64,000 nt of DNA from a virus: positions 10,947-74,946 of IMG/VR virus record IMGVR_UViG_3300025000_000078; one strand, written 5' to 3'. Below the pieces are notes generated by a model. The model was given only the letters and a program-made list of their open reading frames with translations, had not been told where the DNA came from and did no database searches. Positions 320 to 54,949 of this stretch are shown piece after piece. The position numbers and the translations under genes were made by a program. How positions within the stretch are numbered: the first letter of the stretch is position 1; every line of letters starts with the position of its first letter.

Positions 320-727
320 CGATATATTCACATTGGTCGTCAGTCAATGCAGTTCTCTTATGAACTTCCCTAATTTTCACTAGGATACTAGACTATATCT
401 TCATCCTTAATACAATAATGTATTAAGGAGTTACCCATTTCGTAAAGAACTCTGAAAAGTTCACCTCACCATTATTGACTTGTGAGTCTACTCCTACTCT
501 ACTAAAAGTAGCGTCATCAGATAGTCGTTGAACTTTATTCTAATAATATTAATATATTAGAATCTTAGCTGCGGATTACCTAATTTCTTACCTTGTTACC
601 ATACCTAAGGCATTACCCTTCGCCACTATAATATTGCTATTATAGTTTGGTAGTAAGAGATTTAAAGGGCTTCCCCGACAATTAAAGTAGTATTAACATA
701 ATATTACTATTATGCCACCCTAAATTT
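320..727 (-). mobile_element. Group I intron (recA intron 2), ORF-less, family A
   Basis: Core elements on the minus strand: TTGTCGGGGAAG (P), AATCCGCAGCTAAG (Q), TTCAACGACTATC (R), AAGATATAGTCTAG (S). The upstream exon ends in U and pairs with intron GGGUG. The intron ends in G. Confidence 0.9.
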
Positions 728-742
728 AGGTGCATTCCCACC
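728..742 (-). CDS. uvsX: RecA/UvsX micro-exon 2 (15 nt, GGNAP)
   Basis: GGT GGG AAT GCA CCT lies between two introns and restores DQSIP-GGNAP-IYYA, matching the RecA PGGNALKFYA motif. Confidence 0.85.
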
Positions 743-1131
743 CGTAATGTTCACACTATTCGTTAGATAGTGCAGTTCTCCTATGAACTTCCCTAGAATT
801 TCCCTAGGATACCAGACTATATCATCATCTCTATATTTTCATATATAGATGCTTCCTATTTCGATTTAAGGGAATCTCACCCACTCACTTGAGCCCTACT
901 CCTATTGCTTATTTCAAAGCCAAGGGATAGTCGTTGAACCTTTCTCTAATAAATTAGAGGCTTGGCTGCGGATCACTCAATCCTAAAACATTATTACTAT
1001 ACCTTAGATAGTTAATCTAAGCCATTAATACATTACTATATTAATTTAGTAGTTTTAGGCTCTAAGAGATTCCCCGACAATTAAAGAAGTTATTCAACAT
1101 ACATTACTGTATGAGGACCCACAAATCTCGA
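743..1131 (-). mobile_element. Group I intron (recA intron 1), ORF-less, family A
   Basis: Same P/Q/R/S elements; exon ACCU pairs with intron GGGU; ends ...CATTACG. Confidence 0.9.
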
Positions 1132-7202: not shown

Positions 7203-8183
7203 CGATATATTCACATAGGTCGTTAATCTATGCAGTTCTCTTATGAACTTCCTTATCTTTCGATAAGATACTAGACTATATCATTAACCTAATAACTTTC
7301 ATTAGGTTACTTCCCATTTCGATTTAAGGGATTTTCACCCACTCACTTGAGCCCTACTCCTATTGTGTATTTTAACACTAGGATAGTCGTTGAACTTTAT
7401 TCTTATTTTCAATTTTATAATTTTTCGAAATATGATCCCATTTACCATATTTTATCCCATCTATTAAACTATAAAAACTATTATTATCTTTTCTTTTTTT
7501 ATAGCCATAGATATGCATTATTTGCATTTGAGTAAGTCCTTTCTCAAGATATTTACAAATATCTTCTACTATCTCTTCCGAATATTTAGCATAATAATTT
7601 AAACTACCTTTACAACCAAATCTACTTTTACTATGAATTAAACTAAATTCATTATTTTCTTTGGTTGTAACCCATTCAAGATTCTCATAATAATTATTAA
7701 ATGTGCATGTGTCTTTATGATTTACATTCGTTCTTTTTTGTTCTTTATTATAACCATTAACAAATTCCCATGCAACAAGTCTATGGGTTCCAACAATTTT
7801 TACTTTTTTAGTTTCACCAATTAAAACTGAGTATAAATATCCTTTTTTATCAGAATATGGATTTATTATTTTATTGATGTGTATATCTTTAACTTTACCA
7901 AAATTACTTATTAAGTAGCTATTTTTTTTAATAAATGGGTATGTGATAATTCGAAAAATTTCTTTATCTTTTTTAATAATTATATACATTTATTATCATC
8001 CTTTTTAAAATAAATTAAATAAATGTATAATAATATATTAAAAAAAATACTTAATTAATAAATAAGAATCTTAGCTGCGGATTACTCAATCTTTTTATTA
8101 TATAATAAAAAGCTCTAAGAGCTTCCCCGACAATTAAAGAAGTTTTCTATATATGTTACCATATATAGGGGCTAAGCTATGTA
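7203..8183 (-). mobile_element. Group I intron with HNH endonuclease ORF, family A
   Basis: P1: exon GGGU pairs with intron GCCC. P/Q/R/S elements present, with the ORF between Q and R. Ends ATATATCG. Confidence 0.9.
7378..7989 (-). CDS. Intron-encoded HNH homing endonuclease (NUMOD4-HNH-HTH type)
   Basis: YLISNFG, HRLVA, VNHKD...NNYYENLEWVT..EN; the C-terminal VQRL overlaps the intron R element. Confidence 0.88.
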   Translation of the reverse strand: MYIIIKKDKEIFRIITYPFIKKNSYLISNFGKVKDIHINKIINPYSDKKGYLYSVLIGETKKVKIVGTHRLVAWEFVNGYNKEQKRTNVNHKDTCTFNNYYENLEWVTTKENNEFSLIHSKSRFGCKGSLNYYAKYSEEIVEDICKYLEKGLTQMQIMHIYGYKKRKDNNSFYSLIDGIKYGKWDHISKNYKIENKNKVQRLS

Positions 8184-9958: not shown

Positions 9959-11731
9959 CTAAGTTGCTAATGCACCTCCAGCAAGGAAACCATACCATCT
10001 AGTACCACCATTTACAGTAACTAGTGTTAAGATATAAGTACTATTAATTGTACTGATATCAGGTATAGTATCAGAAGGCCATTTTACAGAAGCTGGCCAT
10101 GTGACTGCTTGTGCAGTTGCACCCTGATGAATAATTAAAGTAAGACTACACGCTTCTCCGGTTGTAGCAGGGTTTGAAAATACTAAAGTAGTTGCCCCAG
10201 TCAAGGTTAATTCATGTATATTACCTAAAGCAATATCTAAAGTCACTGAACCCGTAGCATTAGAATTTGGTGCAACAACTTCAGAATAGTCTTTAATTTT
10301 AGGCTGTTGAACTTCATTACGAGCATGAGATGTATTACCAGTAAATGCACCACCAGATTTATTCATTTTATTAACATCTTCTGGTATTGCTTTCCACTCA
10401 GTATCCAATTCAGTATCACTTTTTTTAAACAATGCTTGACCAGTAGTTCCTCCAGCTGCTACTCCTGGACCTGCCGGTCCTACATCTCCAGTAAGACCTT
10501 GTATTCCTTGAGGACCTTGAGGTCCGGTAGCTCCAGCAGGTCCAACCTCACCTTGAGCACCTGTCGGTCCTACATCTCCAGTAAGACCTTGTATTCCTTG
10601 AGGACCTACATCTCCAGTATCCCCTTTAACACCTGCCGGTCCTACATCTCCAGTAAGACCTTGTATTCCTTGAGGACCTACATCTCCAGTATCCCCTTTA
10701 ACACCTGCCGGTCCTACATCTCCAGTAAGACCTTGTATTCCTTGAGGACCTACATCTCCAGTAAGACCTTGTATTCCTTGAGGACCTTGAGGTCCGGTAG
10801 CTCCAGCAGGTCCAACCTCACCTTGTACACCGGCAGGCCCAGAAGGTCCTGATACTCCTTGTGGTCCTATTTGCCCTTGTAATCCTGTAAATTGACCATA
10901 ATCTTTCCAAGTAGCACCATCGTAACCTATAATATGCAAACTCTTGTCCCCTGATATACCAGCAGGTGTATTTTGATCAACACGTATATCACCAGCTGGG
11001 TCAACTACATAGATGTATTGATTGTTTACAGTTGATCCACTACTTTGTATAAAAGTTATGGTAGCTTCATCTAATACACCATATGATGTAGGAGCAAAAT
11101 TAGTTCCATTATTACCTGGAATACCCTGGGGACCAGCCTCACCTTGTAAACCAGTAGAACCTTGGGGTCCAGTAGGTCCAATCTCACCTTGTAAACCCTG
11201 AGCACCTTGAGGACCCTGGAGACCAACCTCACCTTGTAAACCAGTAGAACCTTGTGGTCCAGTTGGCCCTTCAACTCCAACCTCACCTTGTACACCCTGA
11301 GCACCTTGAGGACCTCTTAATAAAACGGGTTCAGACCAATCACTTAAATTATCAGAATTTTTAATATATAAGTTTCCAGTAACTGAGTCTAAAAAAGTAA
11401 ATCCTTTTAACTCAGCATCATATGAACCCAAATCAGCAATATCTCCAATTATATCAAAAGTAAGCCCTTCACCATTATCACCTTTAATACCTTGAGGTCC
11501 AGTTTCTCCCTGTGGACCCCTAGTTATAAAAGTTTTATCCTGCCAGATTTCACCAGTCCACATCTGATAACCTAAACCAACAGATATAAGAGTTTCTTCA
11601 ACTAGTTCTGTTGGATTATTAGTAAAATATTCATCTCGAATAATATCATCATTGAAAAAATGATTATTGTTTATATTATTAATGCGTTCTTTTTTAATTT
11701 TATTAATTTTTGCTAAAAGCAAAGGGTCCAC
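9959..11731 (-). CDS. Collagen-like (Gly-X-Y) fibre protein
   Basis: Long GPQG/GPAG repeats and a C-terminal beta-rich domain ending TRWYG. Confidence 0.85.
10466..10870 (-). repeat. Exact nucleotide tandem repeats in the collagen region
   Basis: A 72-nt unit ([24 protein letters not shown]) occurs in tandem; the sub-unit [12 protein letters not shown] occurs five times with identical DNA. Confidence 0.8.
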
Positions 11732-27602: not shown

Positions 27603-28775
27603 TTAAATAGCTATAATCAATCCAGTAGTAGCCCTAGTTATAGCAGTATATAACCATTTAAAATAATATTCTTTATTACCCATTTTTTCATCATATACTA
27701 AAACATTGTTATATTGAGAACCTTGTGATAAATGAGCCGTTATAGCATGAGCAAATTCAAATTTATTAATATAACTTCGTTTACTTTGTTTTCTCTCTTC
27801 ATAACTTTTAAATAAATAATTATGGTCCATTGGAATTCTTCTAAAAAATTCTTCTATTAAAAATTCAGGTCTGAAATCAATACATACTGATTTTTTAGTA
27901 TATGTGTCTAGATGTATATCTTTAACGTAACCAACTAAACCATTAACAAGTGATATATTATCTAAAACAGATAATGACCAATTATTTTGTCTACAAATAA
28001 TCTTATCTCCGATAATTGGAAAAGGTTTATTTATTTTATTAATACTTTCTCTCACATATCTATTTATATTATCTCTAGTTCTATTCTTACCGCAAATAAC
28101 TATATCATTATCAACTAACATGTTATCTTTAATATCCTCTTTATTAATAACATGACATTTATCACCATATTTACCAACCCTTAATAACTTATGTTTTATT
28201 GCTTGCTGGCTTAGATATATAATAGGGTCATCTTTTTTTTGTCTTATTATTTCAGTTAATATAATATCCGGATTATTTAAGAAAAATGGTTTACCAAAAA
28301 TTGGTGGTAATTGATTTAAATCACCTAATACTAAAACAGGTAGATTGAAACTTAGAATATCAGCTCCGATTTTTCCATCGACAGTTGAACCCTCATCAAT
28401 AACTAAAAGTTCAATATTATCAGGTAATTTAGCTTTTTTAACAAATGTTGGTGTTGTAAGTATACGTCCATTTCTTCTTATAAAATTATTATTTTCATCC
28501 AGTATAGGTACATCAATTAAATCATAAATAACACTATGTATAGTATGTGCATTAATACCTTGACGCATTAAAGCCATTGTCGCTTTACCAATATATGCCA
28601 TAAATAAAACATTTTCCATAGGTATTCTTAATTTATTTATTAAAAAACGTACAATAAATGTTTTTCCTGAACCAGCAGGTCCTGATATTTCGATTACTTG
28701 TTTATTTTGTCTCTTTCTCCATAAAACAATTTCATTTGAGGCATTAGCCTGTTGGGTATTTAATATATCAACCAT
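27603..28775 (-). CDS. SF1 helicase, Dda/RecD-like
   Basis: GPAGSGKT, VIDE, GDLNQLPP, LTEIIRQ, TAHLSQGSQY and YTAITRA. Confidence 0.9.
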   Translation of the reverse strand: MVDILNTQQANASNEIVLWRKRQNKQVIEISGPAGSGKTFIVRFLINKLRIPMENVLFMAYIGKATMALMRQGINAHTIHSVIYDLIDVPILDENNNFIRRNGRILTTPTFVKKAKLPDNIELLVIDEGSTVDGKIGADILSFNLPVLVLGDLNQLPPIFGKPFFLNNPDIILTEIIRQKKDDPIIYLSQQAIKHKLLRVGKYGDKCHVINKEDIKDNMLVDNDIVICGKNRTRDNINRYVRESINKINKPFPIIGDKIICRQNNWSLSVLDNISLVNGLVGYVKDIHLDTYTKKSVCIDFRPEFLIEEFFRRIPMDHNYLFKSYEERKQSKRSYINKFEFAHAITAHLSQGSQYNNVLVYDEKMGNKEYYFKWLYTAITRATTGLIIAI

Positions 28776-31288: not shown

Positions 31289-31706
31289 TTATTTTTTTTT
31301 ATTTAATGCTGATGAAAAATCAAATAAATCTTCTTCTTTATCTTCTTTAATTACTTTTCTTTCTACTGCATTTCTTTTACCTTTTTTATCTATATTTAAA
31401 TCAACACCTTCAAAATCTGTTGATAAACTTTCTTCAGATAATGAATGTTCTAAATAGATATCATCAATAAGTCTAATTCTATTACCAACTTCAAATGGAT
31501 GGTTAAAATAACTTAATTCGTAAGTATCCCTATATCTTATTTTAACTCTTTTAAATGTTAAATAATAATTATTAGTATTCTTTTTCTTTTCTATGTTAAT
31601 GATAATAACAACGTCACTATTTTCAATAACTTCAAAAGCTGAGCCTACATTACCTCTACCCATGAATCTTGCTAAATCTTCTTTATTAGCCATTAGTGCA
31701 CTATCT
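31289..31706 (-). CDS. dnaB: DnaB-like replicative helicase, exon 3
   Basis: GSAFEVIENSDVVI and K.R arginine-finger region; begins after the terminal G at 31707. Confidence 0.85.
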
Positions 31707-32714
31707 CGTTGGTTCACATAGGTCGTTAATCTATGCAGTTCTCTTAAGAACTTCCCTAGTTTTCACTAGGATACCAGACTATATCATTATCTCTCGGTAT
31801 AAGAGATATTTCCCGTTTCGATTTAAGGGATTCTCACCCACTCACTTGAGCCCTACTCCTAATGCTTATTTCAAAGCCAAAGGGATAGTCGTTGAACCTT
31901 GTTATTAAATATCGTATAAATTACTTATATGTCTCCATGATTTTTTATTTCTTATTTTTTTAATTAAATCTATAGTTTTTGGTTTATTTCGTATATCATC
32001 ATTATGTTTTATTCTATCATATATTTTACCCTGACTTAAACCTTGTTTGTGTAATAAACATATCTGATGAACTGTTTCTTCATTATAAACATTTAATACA
32101 CTATTAATCCCTCTAGGATTCCATAATCCAATTTTTATAGCATGTACATTATTTTCTGAAGGAGTTACCCATTCAAGATTTTGATAATAATTATTATTTT
32201 TAAAACCATCTTTATGATTAACAAATATTTTATATTTAGAATTAGGAAAATCTAAAAAATGTTTGGCTACTAATTTATGAATTGATTGATTTATAAAAGT
32301 AGCTTTATTTCTATATAAAGAAACTTTTAAATAACCATTTGGTCTCTTTTGAGGTTTTAAAATCTTATTTGATGTTTTAGAATAAACTCTACCATAATTA
32401 CTTAAAAGATAATCTGGGAAAAGAGGCATCTGTTTCCATTCTTCATTAATAATTATTTGTATAAGTAATTTATTCATTTTTATTTTTTCACCCCTTTATT
32501 TTATACGATTTTATTTTGAGTTTAAATATTTTTATACGATATTTAATAACCTTGGCTGCGGATCACTCAATCCTAAACATTATTACCATACCTAAGACAT
32601 TATTCTTAGCCACTAAAATATTTCTATTCTAGTTTGGTAGCTTAGACTATAAGAGATTTCCCGCAATTAGAGAAATTTTCATATGATATTTCTACCATAT
32701 GCCGCATATAATTT
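31707..32714 (-). mobile_element. Group I intron (dnaB intron 2) with HNH ORF, family A
   Basis: P1 GCCGU/GCGGC; P/Q/R/S elements; ORF enclosed by an extended P6 stem (31902-31920 pairs with 32531-32549). Confidence 0.9.
31905..32477 (-). CDS. Intron-encoded HNH homing endonuclease
   Basis: EEWK...SNYGRV (NUMOD4), HKLVA, VNHKDG.K.NN...NLEWVT.SEN..HA. Confidence 0.9.
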   Translation of the reverse strand: MNKLLIQIIINEEWKQMPLFPDYLLSNYGRVYSKTSNKILKPQKRPNGYLKVSLYRNKATFINQSIHKLVAKHFLDFPNSKYKIFVNHKDGFKNNNYYQNLEWVTPSENNVHAIKIGLWNPRGINSVLNVYNEETVHQICLLHKQGLSQGKIYDRIKHNDDIRNKPKTIDLIKKIRNKKSWRHISNLYDI

Positions 32715-32743
32715 ACGGCTATTGCGCCAGTTCTATTTAATTG
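32715..32743 (-). CDS. dnaB: DnaB micro-exon 2 (29 nt, QLNRTGAIAV)
   Basis: Restores the helicase motif VITAH-QLNR and keeps frame into exon 3. Confidence 0.85.
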
Positions 32744-33073
32744 CTTTATTTTCATACTATTCGTTAAATAGCACAGTTCTCTTATGAACTTCCCTAAGTT
32801 TCCTTAGGATAAAAGACTATATCATTATCTCTTATTTAAAGAGATACTTTCCTTTTCGATTTAAGGGATTCTCACCCACTCACTTGAGCCCTACTCCTAT
32901 TGTGTATTTCAACACCTATGGGATAGTCGTTGAACCTTTCTCTAATAGTTTATTAGAGACTTGGCTGCGGATTACTCAATCTTTTTATTGTATAATAAAA
33001 AGCTCTAAGAGCTTCCCCGACAGTTAAAAAAGTTTTTCATTATAAATCACTTTATAATGCCACCTATAAATTG
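32744..33073 (-). mobile_element. Group I intron (dnaB intron 1), ORF-less, 330 nt, family A
   Basis: P1 CCAU/GUGG; P/Q/R/S elements; ends AAATAAAG. Confidence 0.9.
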
Positions 33074-34288
33074 ATGGGCTGTAATAACAGGTATATCTTT
33101 ATCAACAGCTAAATTCTTTAATTCATTAGTTACATTTTTTAACTCTTCTTTTTCATCTTTAGCTTTTTCATATGGTCTAATTCTTTTAATATAATCTAAA
33201 ATTAAAGCTATTACTTCTTTACCATCATCAGATAATTCATCTATTATTGTATATAAATCAGCAGTTGATATTTCTCTATTAGGATAATATTTAATGATAA
33301 TGTCAATATCATTATCATCAGATAAAATTAATTCTCCATCTTCTTTTAATTTCTTTATTACCTGTTTAGCAGTAAAACTTCTAATATCATCTGAAGTTAC
33401 TGTCATATTAAATAGTCTTTCAACACTCTCCTGGACTGTATTTTCAGCTGTTACTAATAATACACAAGGTTTCTTACCAGGTTTTTTAACTTTTATACCT
33501 TTATTATATTTCTTTATATCAACTGCTGTTTTTAAAAGAATACCTGATTTAAAACCCCCAGGTAAACCTAAATATGTATAAAGACATTTACTCATATATC
33601 CAGGAGATAATATATGATTTAATTTTTGTATACCAGTTCTTAATATACGAGCAGGGTCTTTTAACTCATTGACTATATCAGTAACAACATCTTTAAATAC
33701 ATCTTCTTCCAAACTAAAAGTTTGTGTATTATCAACAGTTGAAACTTTCCTTGTGTGATTTAATATTTTACTACAAATTTCAGTTAATTCATCATTAACT
33801 TCTTGAAAGCTATTATACTCCCCACTGTCAAGACGTTCAATACTTTCGTATAGTCTATCTTTATAATTAAATAAATAAGCATATTTAAGTCTATCTACAA
33901 TAGCTTTATTAATATATTTAATTTCTTCATAATTTATCTTCTTATATATGATTAGAGATTTTATTATTTCTTCTATTTCTTTATTGAAAGTATCAGTTCT
34001 ACAATAATTAACTATTGCATCTTCATTCTCAAATCCTCTATCTAAACGAGCTTCTAAAGCTCTTTTAATAAAGTACGTTCTTGATTCTATTTTTTCATTT
34101 CCTTCATAAATTCTTTCATCTATAATCTCAAATAAATTCTTTAAATTAGTTAAAGATTTTCTTGATACTTGTGAAGAATTCTTAAATATAAAACCTATTA
34201 ACATATTTAACATACTAATATCAAATTTTAGGCTTATTTTCTTTACTTCATTCTCAACCACCTTAAATAATTTTCTTTTACTTACCAA
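33074..34288 (-). CDS. dnaB: DnaB-like replicative helicase, exon 1
   Basis: GLPGGFKS (Walker A), TAEN, LILDYI, LKNLA...PVITAH. Confidence 0.88.
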
Positions 34289-35489
34289 AGGAAGTCCTCC
34301 TCTGTATCTGTTGATATAAGTAATATCTAATTTTATCTACTGTAATGTCCTTATTATATTTTATTTTTATAAATTTAGATATTTTTTCCTCTGGACAAAT
34401 ATTCTTATTAAAAATAAACCCATATTTCTCTAATAATAAATTTATTTTTTCTTCTGTTTCTTTTTTTTGTCTTAATTTATTATTATTATTAATAATAACT
34501 TTTACATTTGTATACTTATTAAATACTTCATTTACCATATTAGTGAATAATAAAGTATTAGGAAAATCTTCTGGTATATTAATTATTAACCTAATATAAT
34601 CTATTAAAAAATTATTGACCAAATCTATTAAATAATCTATTTGATCTTTTTCATTATTATTAAAAAAAGATTTATTATTATAATCTATAGTAATAGTATC
34701 ATATCTTTTAGCTAGTTTATTGACTATAAATTCTGTATTATAATTTTTAGTATCAGATGAATAAGAGAATAGATAAAAACCCTTATCATTTTCTTCCCCA
34801 TAACACCATCTTGAAAAAGAACCAGTATAATATATACAGTCTTTTATTATTTGTGATTCATGTATATGACCAAATATTATTAATCCATCAGTTATATTTA
34901 ATAAAACATCTGAATTAAATATAGGGGCTTTACTCATAGTCATTTCACTTTCTTGTTTATTGGCAACAAATACTACTTCACCAAATAAACCATGACCAAA
35001 TATCATATCATATCTAGAACTAAAATATTCTTTATAATATTCCTCTTTATTTTCTATATATTCCTCTGGTATATATAAAACTTTTAAATCATCAAATAAT
35101 AATTCACTTTCAACACTATATATGATTTTAAAATCATATTTACTATTTTTAGTATATATTTCTAAAGTCTCTAATTGTTTATTATCATGAGACTCAGTTC
35201 CTTTTATTAATCTAACTTTAATATTTTTTTTATATGAAATTTCTAATAACCTAAAAATAAATTGTAAAGCATATTTAGCATGATCTGAATTCATTGAAAT
35301 CTTTGTATTAAAAAAATCCCCCACTATAATTATAAAGTCTATTACTTTTAATTTTTCAATATAATCTAAAAACCCTTCTTGTAATTCATAATATAAATCT
35401 TTTGATTTAATAGATGAACCAAAATGTATATCACCTATAGAAATTCCAACATATAATTTATTATTCAAGTATATTCCCCCATTCATCAT
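34278..35489 (-). CDS. sbcD: SbcD/Mre11-like metallophosphoesterase nuclease
   Basis: GDIHFG, GDFF, GTESHD, FGHIH and YTGS motifs. Confidence 0.85.
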   Translation of the reverse strand: MMNGGIYLNNKLYVGISIGDIHFGSSIKSKDLYYELQEGFLDYIEKLKVIDFIIIVGDFFNTKISMNSDHAKYALQFIFRLLEISYKKNIKVRLIKGTESHDNKQLETLEIYTKNSKYDFKIIYSVESELLFDDLKVLYIPEEYIENKEEYYKEYFSSRYDMIFGHGLFGEVVFVANKQESEMTMSKAPIFNSDVLLNITDGLIIFGHIHESQIIKDCIYYTGSFSRWCYGEENDKGFYLFSYSSDTKNYNTEFIVNKLAKRYDTITIDYNNKSFFNNNEKDQIDYLIDLVNNFLIDYIRLIINIPEDFPNTLLFTNMVNEVFNKYTNVKVIINNNNKLRQKKETEEKINLLLEKYGFIFNKNICPEEKISKFIKIKYNKDITVDKIRYYLYQQIQRRTSFGK

Positions 35490-36138
35490 TATGATTTAGA
35501 TCATACCATAAATGGAATAAACTTAATAAATTTTTAAAAACTTCTATATATTTATTTATTTTACCTCTTGTAAAAATTCTTTCCTTATATCCAGAATTAT
35601 TAATAATTAAAATTCCTACATTATCAACTTCTAACCCTTTTTCTTCAATTAATATACAATAACCAGCTAATTGTAAGAACATTGTTGAATAAAAATCTTT
35701 AGAAGTTTTAAAATCAAGTATTGTTAATTTATTATCTATTTTACCATAAAAATCTATAGTTCCTCCAAATTTCTCTGATGTTAAGGATTCTTCCAGATAT
35801 ATTGGTTTTATTGTATGTAATTCTCTCCATATATTAAATGCTTTAATATGTAAAAAATTAGAATTTAACACATGATATAAGTTACTATATTTTTTGTTAA
35901 TTAAGTCTTTATCAATTAATTGATTAGATAAAATACAATTAATAATGTAATGAACTAAAGTACCAATATTTGAATAATCTTGTAAAACTAATTCATAATT
36001 TTGTCTTTTAAATCCTAGATAATTAACCCATTTTAATAACTTAGGTTTATTCAATAATTGTAAAATTGTAGTAACACTTGGTACTTCTATATTTTTATCA
36101 TTTATATAAATAGTATGATTTTTATTATATTTACCCAT
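35461..36138 (-). CDS. PD-(D/E)XK exonuclease
   Basis: PSVTTIL, GTLVH, GGTID...ILDFKTS and QLAGY motifs. Confidence 0.85.
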   Translation of the reverse strand: MGKYNKNHTIYINDKNIEVPSVTTILQLLNKPKLLKWVNYLGFKRQNYELVLQDYSNIGTLVHYIINCILSNQLIDKDLINKKYSNLYHVLNSNFLHIKAFNIWRELHTIKPIYLEESLTSEKFGGTIDFYGKIDNKLTILDFKTSKDFYSTMFLQLAGYCILIEEKGLEVDNVGILIINNSGYKERIFTRGKINKYIEVFKNLLSLFHLWYDLNHNDEWGNILE

Positions 36139-52274: not shown

Positions 52275-53311
52275 CTAAAGGTTCACATAGGTCGTTACTC
52301 TATGCAGTTCTCTTATGAACTTCCCTAACTCTCATTAGGATACCAGACTATATTATCATCTTTATATAAGTTATAAAGAGACACCTATTTCGATTTAAGG
52401 GAATTTCACCCACTCACTTGAGCCCTACTCCTGTTGTACATTTCAGTACTTAAAGGATAGTCGTTGAACTTTTCTTATACTGTTCAGTATTTATATTTGT
52501 TTGTAATATGTGACCATCTTTCCTTTCTTTTAATTTTACCAATAAAATTTTTTAACAGAATATCTGATTTTTTATCATATTCTGTAAAATTTAATCTAAT
52601 TAATTTAAGTATTTTATCAACAGATTCATTACACACTAATAATTTACAAATAAATTTAACAAGCTTTTCAGTATAAATTGAAGCAAAATGTGCTTCACCC
52701 TTATATTGCCAATGTAACCCCATTTTAACTGCATGTCTGATATTATCACCATGAGTTGACCATTCTAGATTTTTATAATAATTATTTCTTTTAATTCCAT
52801 TTTTATGATTCACTTCTATTTTGTTTAAATCATCATTTTTTACAAATTCATAACAAACCAGTCTATGAATACTAAATTGTCTTTCTTTAATAATTTCTTC
52901 CCCTGTTTGTAATGCAAGTCTATAGTATCCAGCTGAACCTAATTGTTGTGATAAAATATGGTCCCAATTTTTATTTTTTATTCTACCATGATCTGATATT
53001 TGATAAAGATTATTTTTAACACCTGGATAGGTAACATCTTTCCATACTTCAGTTCCTATTTCTATAAAAACTTTCATTTGTATCACCTCCTCCTAAAGAA
53101 TTAATTTAAAGATGTCATGTTTATTGAACAGTATTAAGTTTAGCTGCGGATCACTCAATCCTAAAACCTTATTACTATACCTTGGTTGATTAGTCCAAGC
53201 CATTAATATATCACTATATTAATTTAGTAGTTTTAGGCTCTAAGAGCTTCCCCGACAATTAAAGTGTTGTTTTCTTCACTATAAATCACTCTATAGTGCC
53301 CCACAAAGTTT
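52275..53311 (-). mobile_element. Group I intron (beta' intron 2) with HNH ORF, family A
   Basis: P1 CCCU/GGGG; splits NRNP|T, the equivalent of beta' NRAPT. Confidence 0.9.
52484..53086 (-). CDS. Intron-encoded HNH homing endonuclease
   Basis: EVWK...SDHGRI, HRLV, VNHKNG.K.NN...NLEW.T...N..HA. Confidence 0.9.
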   Translation of the reverse strand: MIQMKVFIEIGTEVWKDVTYPGVKNNLYQISDHGRIKNKNWDHILSQQLGSAGYYRLALQTGEEIIKERQFSIHRLVCYEFVKNDDLNKIEVNHKNGIKRNNYYKNLEWSTHGDNIRHAVKMGLHWQYKGEAHFASIYTEKLVKFICKLLVCNESVDKILKLIRLNFTEYDKKSDILLKNFIGKIKRKERWSHITNKYKY

Positions 53312-53543: not shown

Positions 53544-54949
53544 CGATATATTCACATTAGTCGTCAGCTAATGCAGTTCTCTTATGAACTTCCTTATCTT
53601 TCGATAAGATACTAGACTATATCTTCATCCATTATATAATCAGTATAATGGAGCTCTCCATTTCGTAAAGAATTCTTTAAGAATTCACCCTACCATTTAT
53701 TGACTTGTAGGTCTACTTCTACTCACATATTTAAAGTATGTTTTCGAATAGTCGTTGAACTTTATTTTTCACCAGTTATTTTTTAATAATCATATTAAGA
53801 AGTAATGATTGTCCGAACATTTCTTCTCTTTAAATCATAAATTAAATTTTGATAATGTATTTTTTCTTTAATAGGTATATTAATTATTTTTATTATATCA
53901 GTGGTTTTATAACCTTTCTCCAAGTATTGACATATTAAATGAATCAAATCATCACTATATATTTTTTTATCTAATCTTTCAGTAGAAAAATTATATTTTT
54001 TTGATATATTTCTACGAGTTTTAAAGTGACGAATATCACCAATTAATTTAGCGTAACTTCCTTTTTCTTTTTCAACTACACCTAATTCTTTTATTATATC
54101 TCTGGGATATAAACCTTTTTCTAAATATTGACATATAGTATGAATTAGTTCATCAGAAAATTCCCGTTTAAATTTTTTATTAGAAAAATTATATTCACTG
54201 GTTATATCAGCCCAATCACATTTAGCTTTTAATCTATGGATTAAATCACCAAAAGATTTCTTATCTTTATTTTCAATATTCATTAGTTTTATTATTTTTT
54301 TAGGTGATAAATCCTTTTCAATATATTCACACACTTGTCTTATTACCGGTTCAGTATATTTAAAATTAACACAAAATCCTCTTTTTTTCTTTATATTCCC
54401 GTGTTTAAAACCGTGAAGAATATTTTCACTTTGAGTAGTCCATTCTAAATTCCATTTATGACATATATATCTCTGATTATTTAAATGATTAACCACACAT
54501 TTTTTATCACTATATCCCTCAACAAAATGCCACGCTACAATTCTGTGAACAGTATATGTTTTTTTCTTAACTAGATTCTTTACTTTTAATCTAATACGTA
54601 AATACCCATCTGGACATAGTGCTTTAGTATAGATCTTTCCTGTTTTACCATGGTTACTTACAGAATATAGATTTGATTCAATATCCCTATAATTTATAGT
54701 TTCCCATTTTTCTTCTTCTAAAATAAATGTTATATACAATGTTAATTACCACCTCCTTATTATAAATTTTTGAACAATTTTCTATTTCTCACTGGTAAAA
54801 AATCTTAGCTGCGGATTACTCAATCCTAAAACCTTATTACTATACCTTAGATGATTAATCTAAGCCATTAATATATCACTATATTAATTTAGTAGTTTTA
54901 GGCTCTAAGAGCTTCCCCGACAATTAAAAGAGTTACGTTGCGTATTTCC
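53544..54949 (-). mobile_element. Group I intron (beta' intron 1) with HNH ORF, family A
   Basis: P1 CGUUGU/GCAACG; splits SARCVV|IPDP; ends ATATATCG. Confidence 0.9.
53795..54739 (-). CDS. Intron-encoded HNH endonuclease with three C-terminal HTH-like repeats
   Basis: HRIVA, VNHLN...NLEWTT.SEN..H; I..(V/I)C.Y(I/L)EK repeated three times. Confidence 0.88.
   Translation of the reverse strand: MYITFILEEEKWETINYRDIESNLYSVSNHGKTGKIYTKALCPDGYLRIRLKVKNLVKKKTYTVHRIVAWHFVEGYSDKKCVVNHLNNQRYICHKWNLEWTTQSENILHGFKHGNIKKKRGFCVNFKYTEPVIRQVCEYIEKDLSPKKIIKLMNIENKDKKSFGDLIHRLKAKCDWADITSEYNFSNKKFKREFSDELIHTICQYLEKGLYPRDIIKELGVVEKEKGSYAKLIGDIRHFKTRRNISKKYNFSTERLDKKIYSDDLIHLICQYLEKGYKTTDIIKIINIPIKEKIHYQNLIYDLKRRNVRTIITS

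Follow-up and report, generated by a model that had tools for sequence, protein, structure and literature searches.

A 29-nt exon between two group I introns in the DnaB-like helicase gene of a predicted AR9/PBS1-like jumbo phage

Described systems and the helicase locus

Similar group I introns crowded into one phage gene have been described in several systems. Phages of the Bastillevirinae carry several similar group I introns per gene together with small internal exons, and exon skipping occurs (PMC3073962, PMC11878797). The passages of these two papers that cite Landthaler and Shub 1999 describe three group I introns that resemble one another, and exon skipping, also for the small gene orf142 of phage Twort. 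In phage SIOphi the skipped-exon form is the dominant splice variant of the terminase, and more than 47% of the polymerase transcripts skip an exon. With respect to mobility, a precedent is given by mobE/nrdB of phage T4, where a nicking HNH endonuclease mobilises an adjacent non-mobile intron and trans homing was shown by crosses (Wilson and Edgell 2009, PMC2790892). Co-conversion reached up to ~2 kb in that system, and its authors predict trans homing for genes in which nuclease-containing and nuclease-lacking introns are mixed (PMC2790892). Here we analysed a stretch of 64,000 nucleotides (nt) of viral DNA, hereafter the window (IMG/VR record IMGVR_UViG_3300025000_000078, positions 10,947 to 74,946), in which the gene for a DnaB-like replicative helicase, located on the minus strand at 34288-31289, is split into three exons by two group I introns. 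The first of them, intron A, is free of open reading frames (ORFs), the second, intron B, carries the gene for an I-HmuI-like HNH homing endonuclease, and the insertion sites of A and B are separated by 29 nt of exon.

The window is part of a 74.9-kb contig that CheckV estimates to be ~31% complete, and homologues of its genes reside on contigs of 200-260 kb. As judged by its relatives, the source is an AR9/PBS1-like jumbo phage. Compared by their helicases, the nearest cultured phages are AR9, PBS1, BpSp, LPJP1 and Staphylococcus jumbo phages, at 29-34% amino acid (aa) identity. Phages of the AR9/PBS1 type are AT-rich, have genomes of ~250 kb and encode multisubunit RNA polymerases (RNAP), and group I as well as group II introns with homing endonucleases are found in their RNAP genes (PMC12350094). 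The intron density of the window phage is far greater than that of AR9 and PBS1, whose helicases, compared over exon 1, each gave a single continuous tblastn match.

Like Twort orf142, as far as the passages cited above describe it, the locus combines close-set similar introns of the IA type in one phage gene with a short internal exon and the risk that this exon is skipped. In contrast to orf142, which encodes a tail tube protein, the gene of the window encodes a helicase, one of its introns contains an HNH gene, and its splicing is predicted from sequence. The genes of phiNIT1 and SIOphi are similar in that two or three group I introns interrupt one core replication gene, and there cDNA reads were needed to find a small internal exon; those phages, however, are Herelleviridae with RNA support, whereas the AR9-like locus of the window is known here from homology alone. 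The endonuclease gene resembles those of the I-HmuI and I-HmuII introns of the Bacillus phages SPO1 and SP82, since in both cases an HNH protein with an N-terminal DNA-binding region of the NUMOD4 type is encoded inside a phage group I intron, but sequence identity is low and the host gene there is a DNA polymerase gene and not a helicase gene. Finally, mobE of T4 is free-standing, whereas the HNH gene of the window lies inside the neighbouring intron, and for this locus we only infer trans homing. Altogether, the locus is a new example of a known phage layout; every element has a precedent, and the locus does not point to a new mechanism.

We consider it probable that this is a functional arrangement of three helicase exons with two independently folding introns, of which B would be mobile and A would belong to an older lineage, and that the surrounding region is a hot spot colonised independently by different introns.

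Gene model, ribozymes and endonuclease gene

When positions 34282-33074, 32743-32715 and 31706-31289 were joined by script, the result was a sequence of 1656 nt, in frame and with one terminal stop (for features, see Table 1). Across the junctions, marked here by slashes, the spliced product reads PVITAH/QLNRTGAIAV/DSALMANKEDL. The uninterrupted homologue P0001 (554 aa) reads PVITAHQLNRSGAISVDSALMANKEDL and matches this product residue for residue at both junctions. More than 70 full-length relatives are uninterrupted through the QLNR stretch, and Q, N, R and A of this segment were invariant in an alignment of 24 full-length relatives. Membership in the helicase family is evident from the Pfam scores of exon 1, which reached 74.3 bits for divDNAB (PF20307) and 37.2 bits for DnaB_C (PF03796). 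Counted from the S at 34282, the last codon of exon 1 encodes residue His403 of the spliced protein. The probable start codon is the TTG at 34288, downstream of the Shine-Dalgarno sequence GAGGAGGA; it yields the N-terminus MVSKRK, the same as in P0001.

Exon 2, with the letters CAA TTA AAT AGA ACT GGC GCA ATA GCC GT, is the shortest internal exon seen across the helicase gene family, and its incomplete last codon is finished to Val by the A at 31706. The first 5 nt of intron A are identical to the first 5 nt of exon 2 (CAATT), and therefore the junction of intron A could slide on sequence alone; among the positions that this permits, only the chosen one has a U preceding the 5' splice site as well as a G ending the intron. 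Skipping of exon 2 in silico led to a frameshift, with the reading AH-R-stop. A twintron or a single intron of 1367 nt was rejected, because the intervening 29 nt are conserved coding sequence that every homologue needs. In all these respects the preliminary description of the locus was borne out: it had placed the QLNRTGAIA exon, with a Val codon completed by exon 3, between an ORF-less intron of 330 nt and an HNH intron of 1008 nt, and had stated that loss of this exon would frameshift the helicase. Coordinates, frame and homologues agree with it, and the ORF that it had assigned to the HNH protein lies at the expected place and matches NUMOD4, HNH_3 and I-HmuI. Gene callers fragment the helicase and miss the 29-nt exon entirely; one called fragment, P0121, starts within the 3' end of intron B and continues into exon 3. 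A correct gene model requires all three exons.

Table 1. Exons, introns and intron-encoded gene of the helicase locus (positions in the window)
Feature	Position	Strand	Properties
Helicase exon 1	33074..34288	-	ends ACA GCC CAT at T33074; Pfam divDNAB 9e-21, DnaB_C 3e-9; 95% identical to P0001
Intron A	32744..33073	-	330 nt, ORF-less group I, IA type; Rfam RF00028 86.6 bits, E 1e-20
Exon 2 (micro-exon)	32715..32743	-	29 nt; QLNRTGAIA + GT
Intron B	31707..32714	-	1008 nt, group I; RF00028 match to 3' half only, 29.2 bits, E 3e-5
I-HmuI-like HNH homing endonuclease gene	31905..32477	-	190 aa + stop; in P6 loop of intron B
Helicase exon 3	31289..31706	-	A + DSALMANKEDL... to stop; follows exon 2 without a break in every uninterrupted homologue

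Intron A covers the whole Intron_gpI model and clearly exceeds its gathering score of 50. The ~70 nt that separate P7 from the 3' strand of P3 correspond to the P7.1/P7.2 insert of subgroup IA. No ORF with a start codon is present in this intron, and nothing in its P6a, a clean hairpin of 9 bp, points to an ORF that was lost. Intron B alone does not pass the RF00028 gathering score; only its 3' half is found by the covariance model because ~640 nt (the ORF and its flanks) occupy the P6 loop. According to a script check, P2, P3, P4, P6, P7, P8, P9, P9.1 and P9.2 all pair in each of the two introns, and P3 of intron B spans the ORF, with nt 39-45 pairing with nt 901-907. P1 is formed by CCAU/GUGG in intron A and by GCCGU/GCGGC in intron B; both introns have a U.G pair at the splice site and a terminal G (G32744 and G31707, respectively). 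In P3 and P9.2, A and B differ on both strands in a compensatory manner so that pairing is kept, which speaks for selection on the folding of both RNAs. Two antisense stop-free frames on the plus strand (32788-33027 and 31690-31908) were discarded as candidate genes; they lack a start codon and mirror conserved ribozyme RNA.

The two side-by-side ribozymes would each fold separately and excise themselves by the guanosine-initiated two-step reaction, and double excision would restore the conserved segment AHQLNRxGAxxVD. The start of exon 2 would act as the 3' exon for intron A, and the final 5 nt of this exon (GCCGU) provide the 5' strand of P1 of intron B. These two uses of the 29-nt exon do not overlap, and so a particular order of splicing would not be enforced. 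A different reading is that one or both introns splice inefficiently, that the main output is a truncated protein of ~406 aa (with the TTG as its start) or exon-skipped RNA, and that the locus is a decaying gene or the source of a regulated alternative product. This would be in line with the near-identical P7, P9 and P9.1 elements of A and B and with the exon skipping between similar adjacent group I introns that the passages on Twort and SIOphi document. However, none of the three exons is disrupted or out of frame, exon 1 shares 95% identity with an intact homologue, both ribozyme cores are complete and a replicative helicase is presumably essential, and thus we judge poor splicing to be exceedingly improbable. 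The competition of the two near-identical ribozymes around the 29-nt exon could also set the ratio of full-length to truncated helicase, although we find this quite improbable.

The 3' halves of A and B are 82% identical, and both introns are equally close (78-84%) to those in the recA, RNAP beta and RNAP beta' genes within the window. In their 5' halves, intron B aligned at 76-79% to introns of the relative L040 and intron A resembles an intron of the relative L053 inserted at the same site (75%); intron B has the longer P5 extension. In introns of Staphylococcus phages of the Twort type, a block of ~130 nt recurs with ~81% identity to the window introns; it was the only hit when the phage collection was searched for near-identical DNA. 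By these identities, A and B are members of a genome-wide modular ribozyme family and not products of a local duplication. Duplication of A into B was rejected, as the P7.1/P7.2 block and the 3' identity that they share are no higher than those towards the recA, beta and beta' introns. The preliminary description had called the locus a second, independent twin-intron arrangement. The pair is real, but the word 'independent' needs qualifying, since one ribozyme family recurs in recA, RNAP beta and beta'. The other back-to-back pair of group I introns is located in a recA/uvsX-like gene at window 320-1131 on the minus strand (Rfam 60.8 and 46.7 bits). Both of its introns are ORF-less and enclose a 15-nt exon (728-742), and the joined frame QSIP/GGNAP/IYYAN is open.

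The ATG of the HNH gene in intron B is preceded by a separate Shine-Dalgarno sequence, AAAGGGGUG. The product of this gene matched NUMOD4 with 37.4 bits (cut-off 23.4) and is homologous to I-HmuI (1U3E) over residues 13-136 (E 2e-14); the segment NHKDG aligns to DHKDG of I-HmuI. The catalytic His and Asn residues are retained, N87, H88, N100 and N109 being invariant among five related intron HNH proteins. The protein is apparently an intact enzyme of the I-HmuI type, for which nicking activity is predicted. An identical HNH protein is recorded on 9 contigs from three sources, and the arrangement is therefore unlikely to be a one-off assembly error. In this analysis, the HNH protein of intron B and that of an intron at the site of A in the relative L044 were mutually closest, with 44% identity, and identities to three other HNH proteins of window introns amounted to 32-36%. 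When viral contigs were scanned with the HNH protein, no match closer than 38% identity was obtained. Three further I-HmuI-like HNH ORFs are located in introns of the RNAP beta and beta' genes (window 7381-7989, 52487-53086 and 53798-54739, minus strand); they keep the same NH...N...N residues.

Insertion sites and divergence among relatives

Relatives of the helicase gene were collected in two scans anchored on C-terminal motifs downstream of all insertion sites, and hence unbiased for the sites of introns A and B (sites A and B). The scans returned 69 partly redundant loci (31 viral and 38 metagenomic), whose exons were mapped by tblastn and whose exon boundaries were read. Among these loci, only the window had an intron at site B. 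Site A, between H and Q, was occupied in the absence of an intron at site B in L044 (1123 nt, with its own HNH gene in P6), in L052 (268 nt, no ORF) and in L053/L081 (277 nt, no ORF). Intron A shares its insertion point with the site-A introns of L044, L052 and L053, and its guide sequence is similar to theirs. Additionally, six called C-terminal fragments (P0124, P0128, P0129, P0130, P0132 and P0134) start at QLNR and run through V-D, which corresponds to an occupied site A and an empty site B; P0129 comes from the L052 contig, so that five further alleles are added. Altogether, site-A introns without B were present in at least eight related alleles. In L052, none of the flanking ORFs of at least 90 aa within ~2-3 kb of the helicase matched a Pfam nuclease family. 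The closest relatives, L039/L070 and L071 (93-94% aa identity), have a helicase gene without introns, and in L040/L072 (92%) introns are confined to site C and the vicinity of residue 284.

Site C, which follows NVGxA, was the commonest one. Site 0 lies after IPV, 13 nt upstream of site A (L095, L107), site D after AWEV or AWEI, and more insertion sites were found near residues 211, 234 and 284 (q211, q234, q284). At least five insertion sites fall within ~125 nt around the QLNR motif, and sites 0, A and B within 42 nt. The combinations 0+C, A+C, A+B and q284+C were seen, and each insertion site has its own GC-rich P1 target of 4-6 nt in the AT-rich genome. As a whole the helicase family is a hot spot for introns, and at least eight different sites are used among L040, L043, L053, L057, L060, L095 and L107; the helicase gene of L053 contains four ORF-less introns. 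A distant cultured relative, Yersinia phage phiR1-37 (NC_016163), may also have a split helicase, given a helicase match in two pieces at 252016-253933 and an annotated HNH gene, g336, beneath it.

This distribution suggests that a hot spot in a conserved gene would have been colonised independently by different intron and nuclease lineages. Intron A would represent an older lineage, located at the H/Q site in several relatives and ORF-less here, whereas intron B, seen at site B in this lineage only, would be a mobile element by means of its putative nicking HNH enzyme. The enzyme would nick intron-less alleles near site B, and the ensuing repair would copy B and nearly always A as well. Because only 29 nt separate the two sites, hitch-hiking of A on the homing of B is likely; it would be a likely result of the layout rather than the reason for the clustering.

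Co-conversion can also be given a stronger role, in which A is kept and spread by the endonuclease of B, the pair behaves as one unit and the clustering of group I introns is thereby explained. The distance of 29 nt, the restriction of a functional-looking HNH to B, the precedent of trans homing (PMC2790892) and the contig L071, which has neither intron and diverges from 19 nt upstream of A, are in favour of such a role. It is hard to reconcile, however, with the alleles that have A and not B, some of them ORF-less, with L052, where no recognisable nuclease occurs within 2-3 kb, and with L044, whose site-A intron has its own HNH; moreover, B was in no other locus, and the relatives pair other sites (0+C, A+C, q284+C). 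Since A introns occur without B, A does not need the nuclease of B and co-conversion does not explain the clustering, and we regard this stronger version as unlikely. The preliminary description had proposed that co-conversion by the neighbouring endonuclease would explain clustered introns, and had named an independent distribution of the two introns across relatives as evidence to the contrary. Mechanistically the proposal is plausible at 29 nt; as the cause of clustering it fails, given the A-only relatives. Co-inheritance of the two introns was not found, and the distribution across relatives, with A alone in the alleles listed above and B nowhere else, is largely an independent one.

The preferred explanation, the colonised hot spot, also draws on a recombination signal. 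The intron-less metagenome contig L071 (1-4354, compared with window 35844-31296) is identical to the window for 2.7 kb, and the first difference is located 19 nt upstream of site A. Past that point, divergence amounts to ~20% over the rest of the gene, and beyond the helicase stop L071 is unalignable. As the divergence starts upstream of A, the two introns are found on the same side of a sharp junction, which could reflect a one-event gain of both introns together with their flanks, a crossover at the edge of heterology or a chimera of strains in the assembly. The lack of both introns in L071 is compatible with A as a passenger of trans homing, but not decisive.

In the comparison with L039, background divergence was 8.9%, and the micro-exon contained 6 differences in 29 nt. 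Its GCC, which pairs with the guide of intron B, is TCA or TCG in relatives. Divergence from L039 peaked at 40% over nt 41-120 of exon 3 (window 31587-31666), centred on sites C and D, and the last 140 nt of the gene are almost identical to L039. A single co-conversion tract at A and B was considered and rejected; positions 1180-1500 of the coding sequence are enriched in differences from L039 (Fisher p 2e-9), with the peak at C/D. A three-way tally of divergence was star-like. Despite its 40% divergence, nt 41-120 of exon 3 encode a conserved part of the protein. The Trp right after site C, invariant in 24 relatives, is Phe in the window; this Phe is common to P0124, P0134 and P0135, and P0124 and P0134 carry a site-A intron. 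The divergent stretch of exon 3 could be what an earlier intron left behind, or it could reflect escape from a site-C nuclease.

Several observations count against the hot-spot reading with a mobile intron B. The HNH_3 match of the endonuclease is marginal, its 23.1 bits being just under the Pfam cut-off of 24.8. No clean conversion tract centred on A and B was seen relative to L039. Intron B occurs in no relative, so that none of them allows A and B to be scored for joint inheritance. Furthermore, the junction in L071 could be an assembly chimera between strains, and the direction of the change, gain or loss, is ambiguous.

Origin of intron B and significance of the locus

Intron B might have arisen in this genome, if a ribozyme of the family together with an HNH cassette had moved to a point 29 nt downstream of A. 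The route would have been reverse splicing or ectopic homing into GCCGU, which is like CCCGU at site 0 and CCCAU at site A. In favour of this, B is confined to this lineage, identities of its 3' half to introns in the helicase, recA, beta and beta' genes of the window are 80-84%, the three neighbouring 5' exon ends and guides differ by only 1-2 nt, and its HNH protein is closest to that of the L044 site-A intron. Yet B is no closer to A than to other members of the family, 44% protein identity is distant, and short GC-rich P1 targets may just be what works in an AT-rich genome. In addition, GCC in place of TCA or TCG at the guide of B would be explained at least equally well if B had been imported, together with its flanks, from a donor not yet sampled. 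We therefore hold an origin within this genome to be very doubtful, and the proposed route no less so.

The relationship of the two HNH proteins, at site A in L044 and at site B in the window, can be read in another way. They could belong to one helicase-targeting lineage that recognises the same conserved target while the insertion sites have drifted (0, A, B), although we find this quite improbable. If it were true, one nuclease specificity would serve introns at different points in the repair tract, and the H4-motif region would document the drift of sites 0, A and B under a fixed nuclease target. Such decoupling of cut site from insertion site is the way in which mobile introns are proposed to arise.

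The genes next to the helicase seem to form a module for replication and recombination. An ORF for a metallophosphoesterase-like (SbcD/Mre11-like) protein of 405 aa at 34278-35495 (minus strand) lies directly upstream of the helicase, and its counterpart in L052 matches Metallophos; a further ORF at window 27603-28775 (minus strand) encodes a P-loop helicase-like protein of 390 aa.

Together with its relatives, the locus forms a natural series for the pile-up of homing elements in one conserved target: within one short stretch at least five positions are occupied, the combinations vary, and some of the introns carry a nuclease gene while others do not. Trans homing at very close quarters, as well as the skipping of an exon flanked by near-identical ribozymes, could be studied here in a simple test bed.

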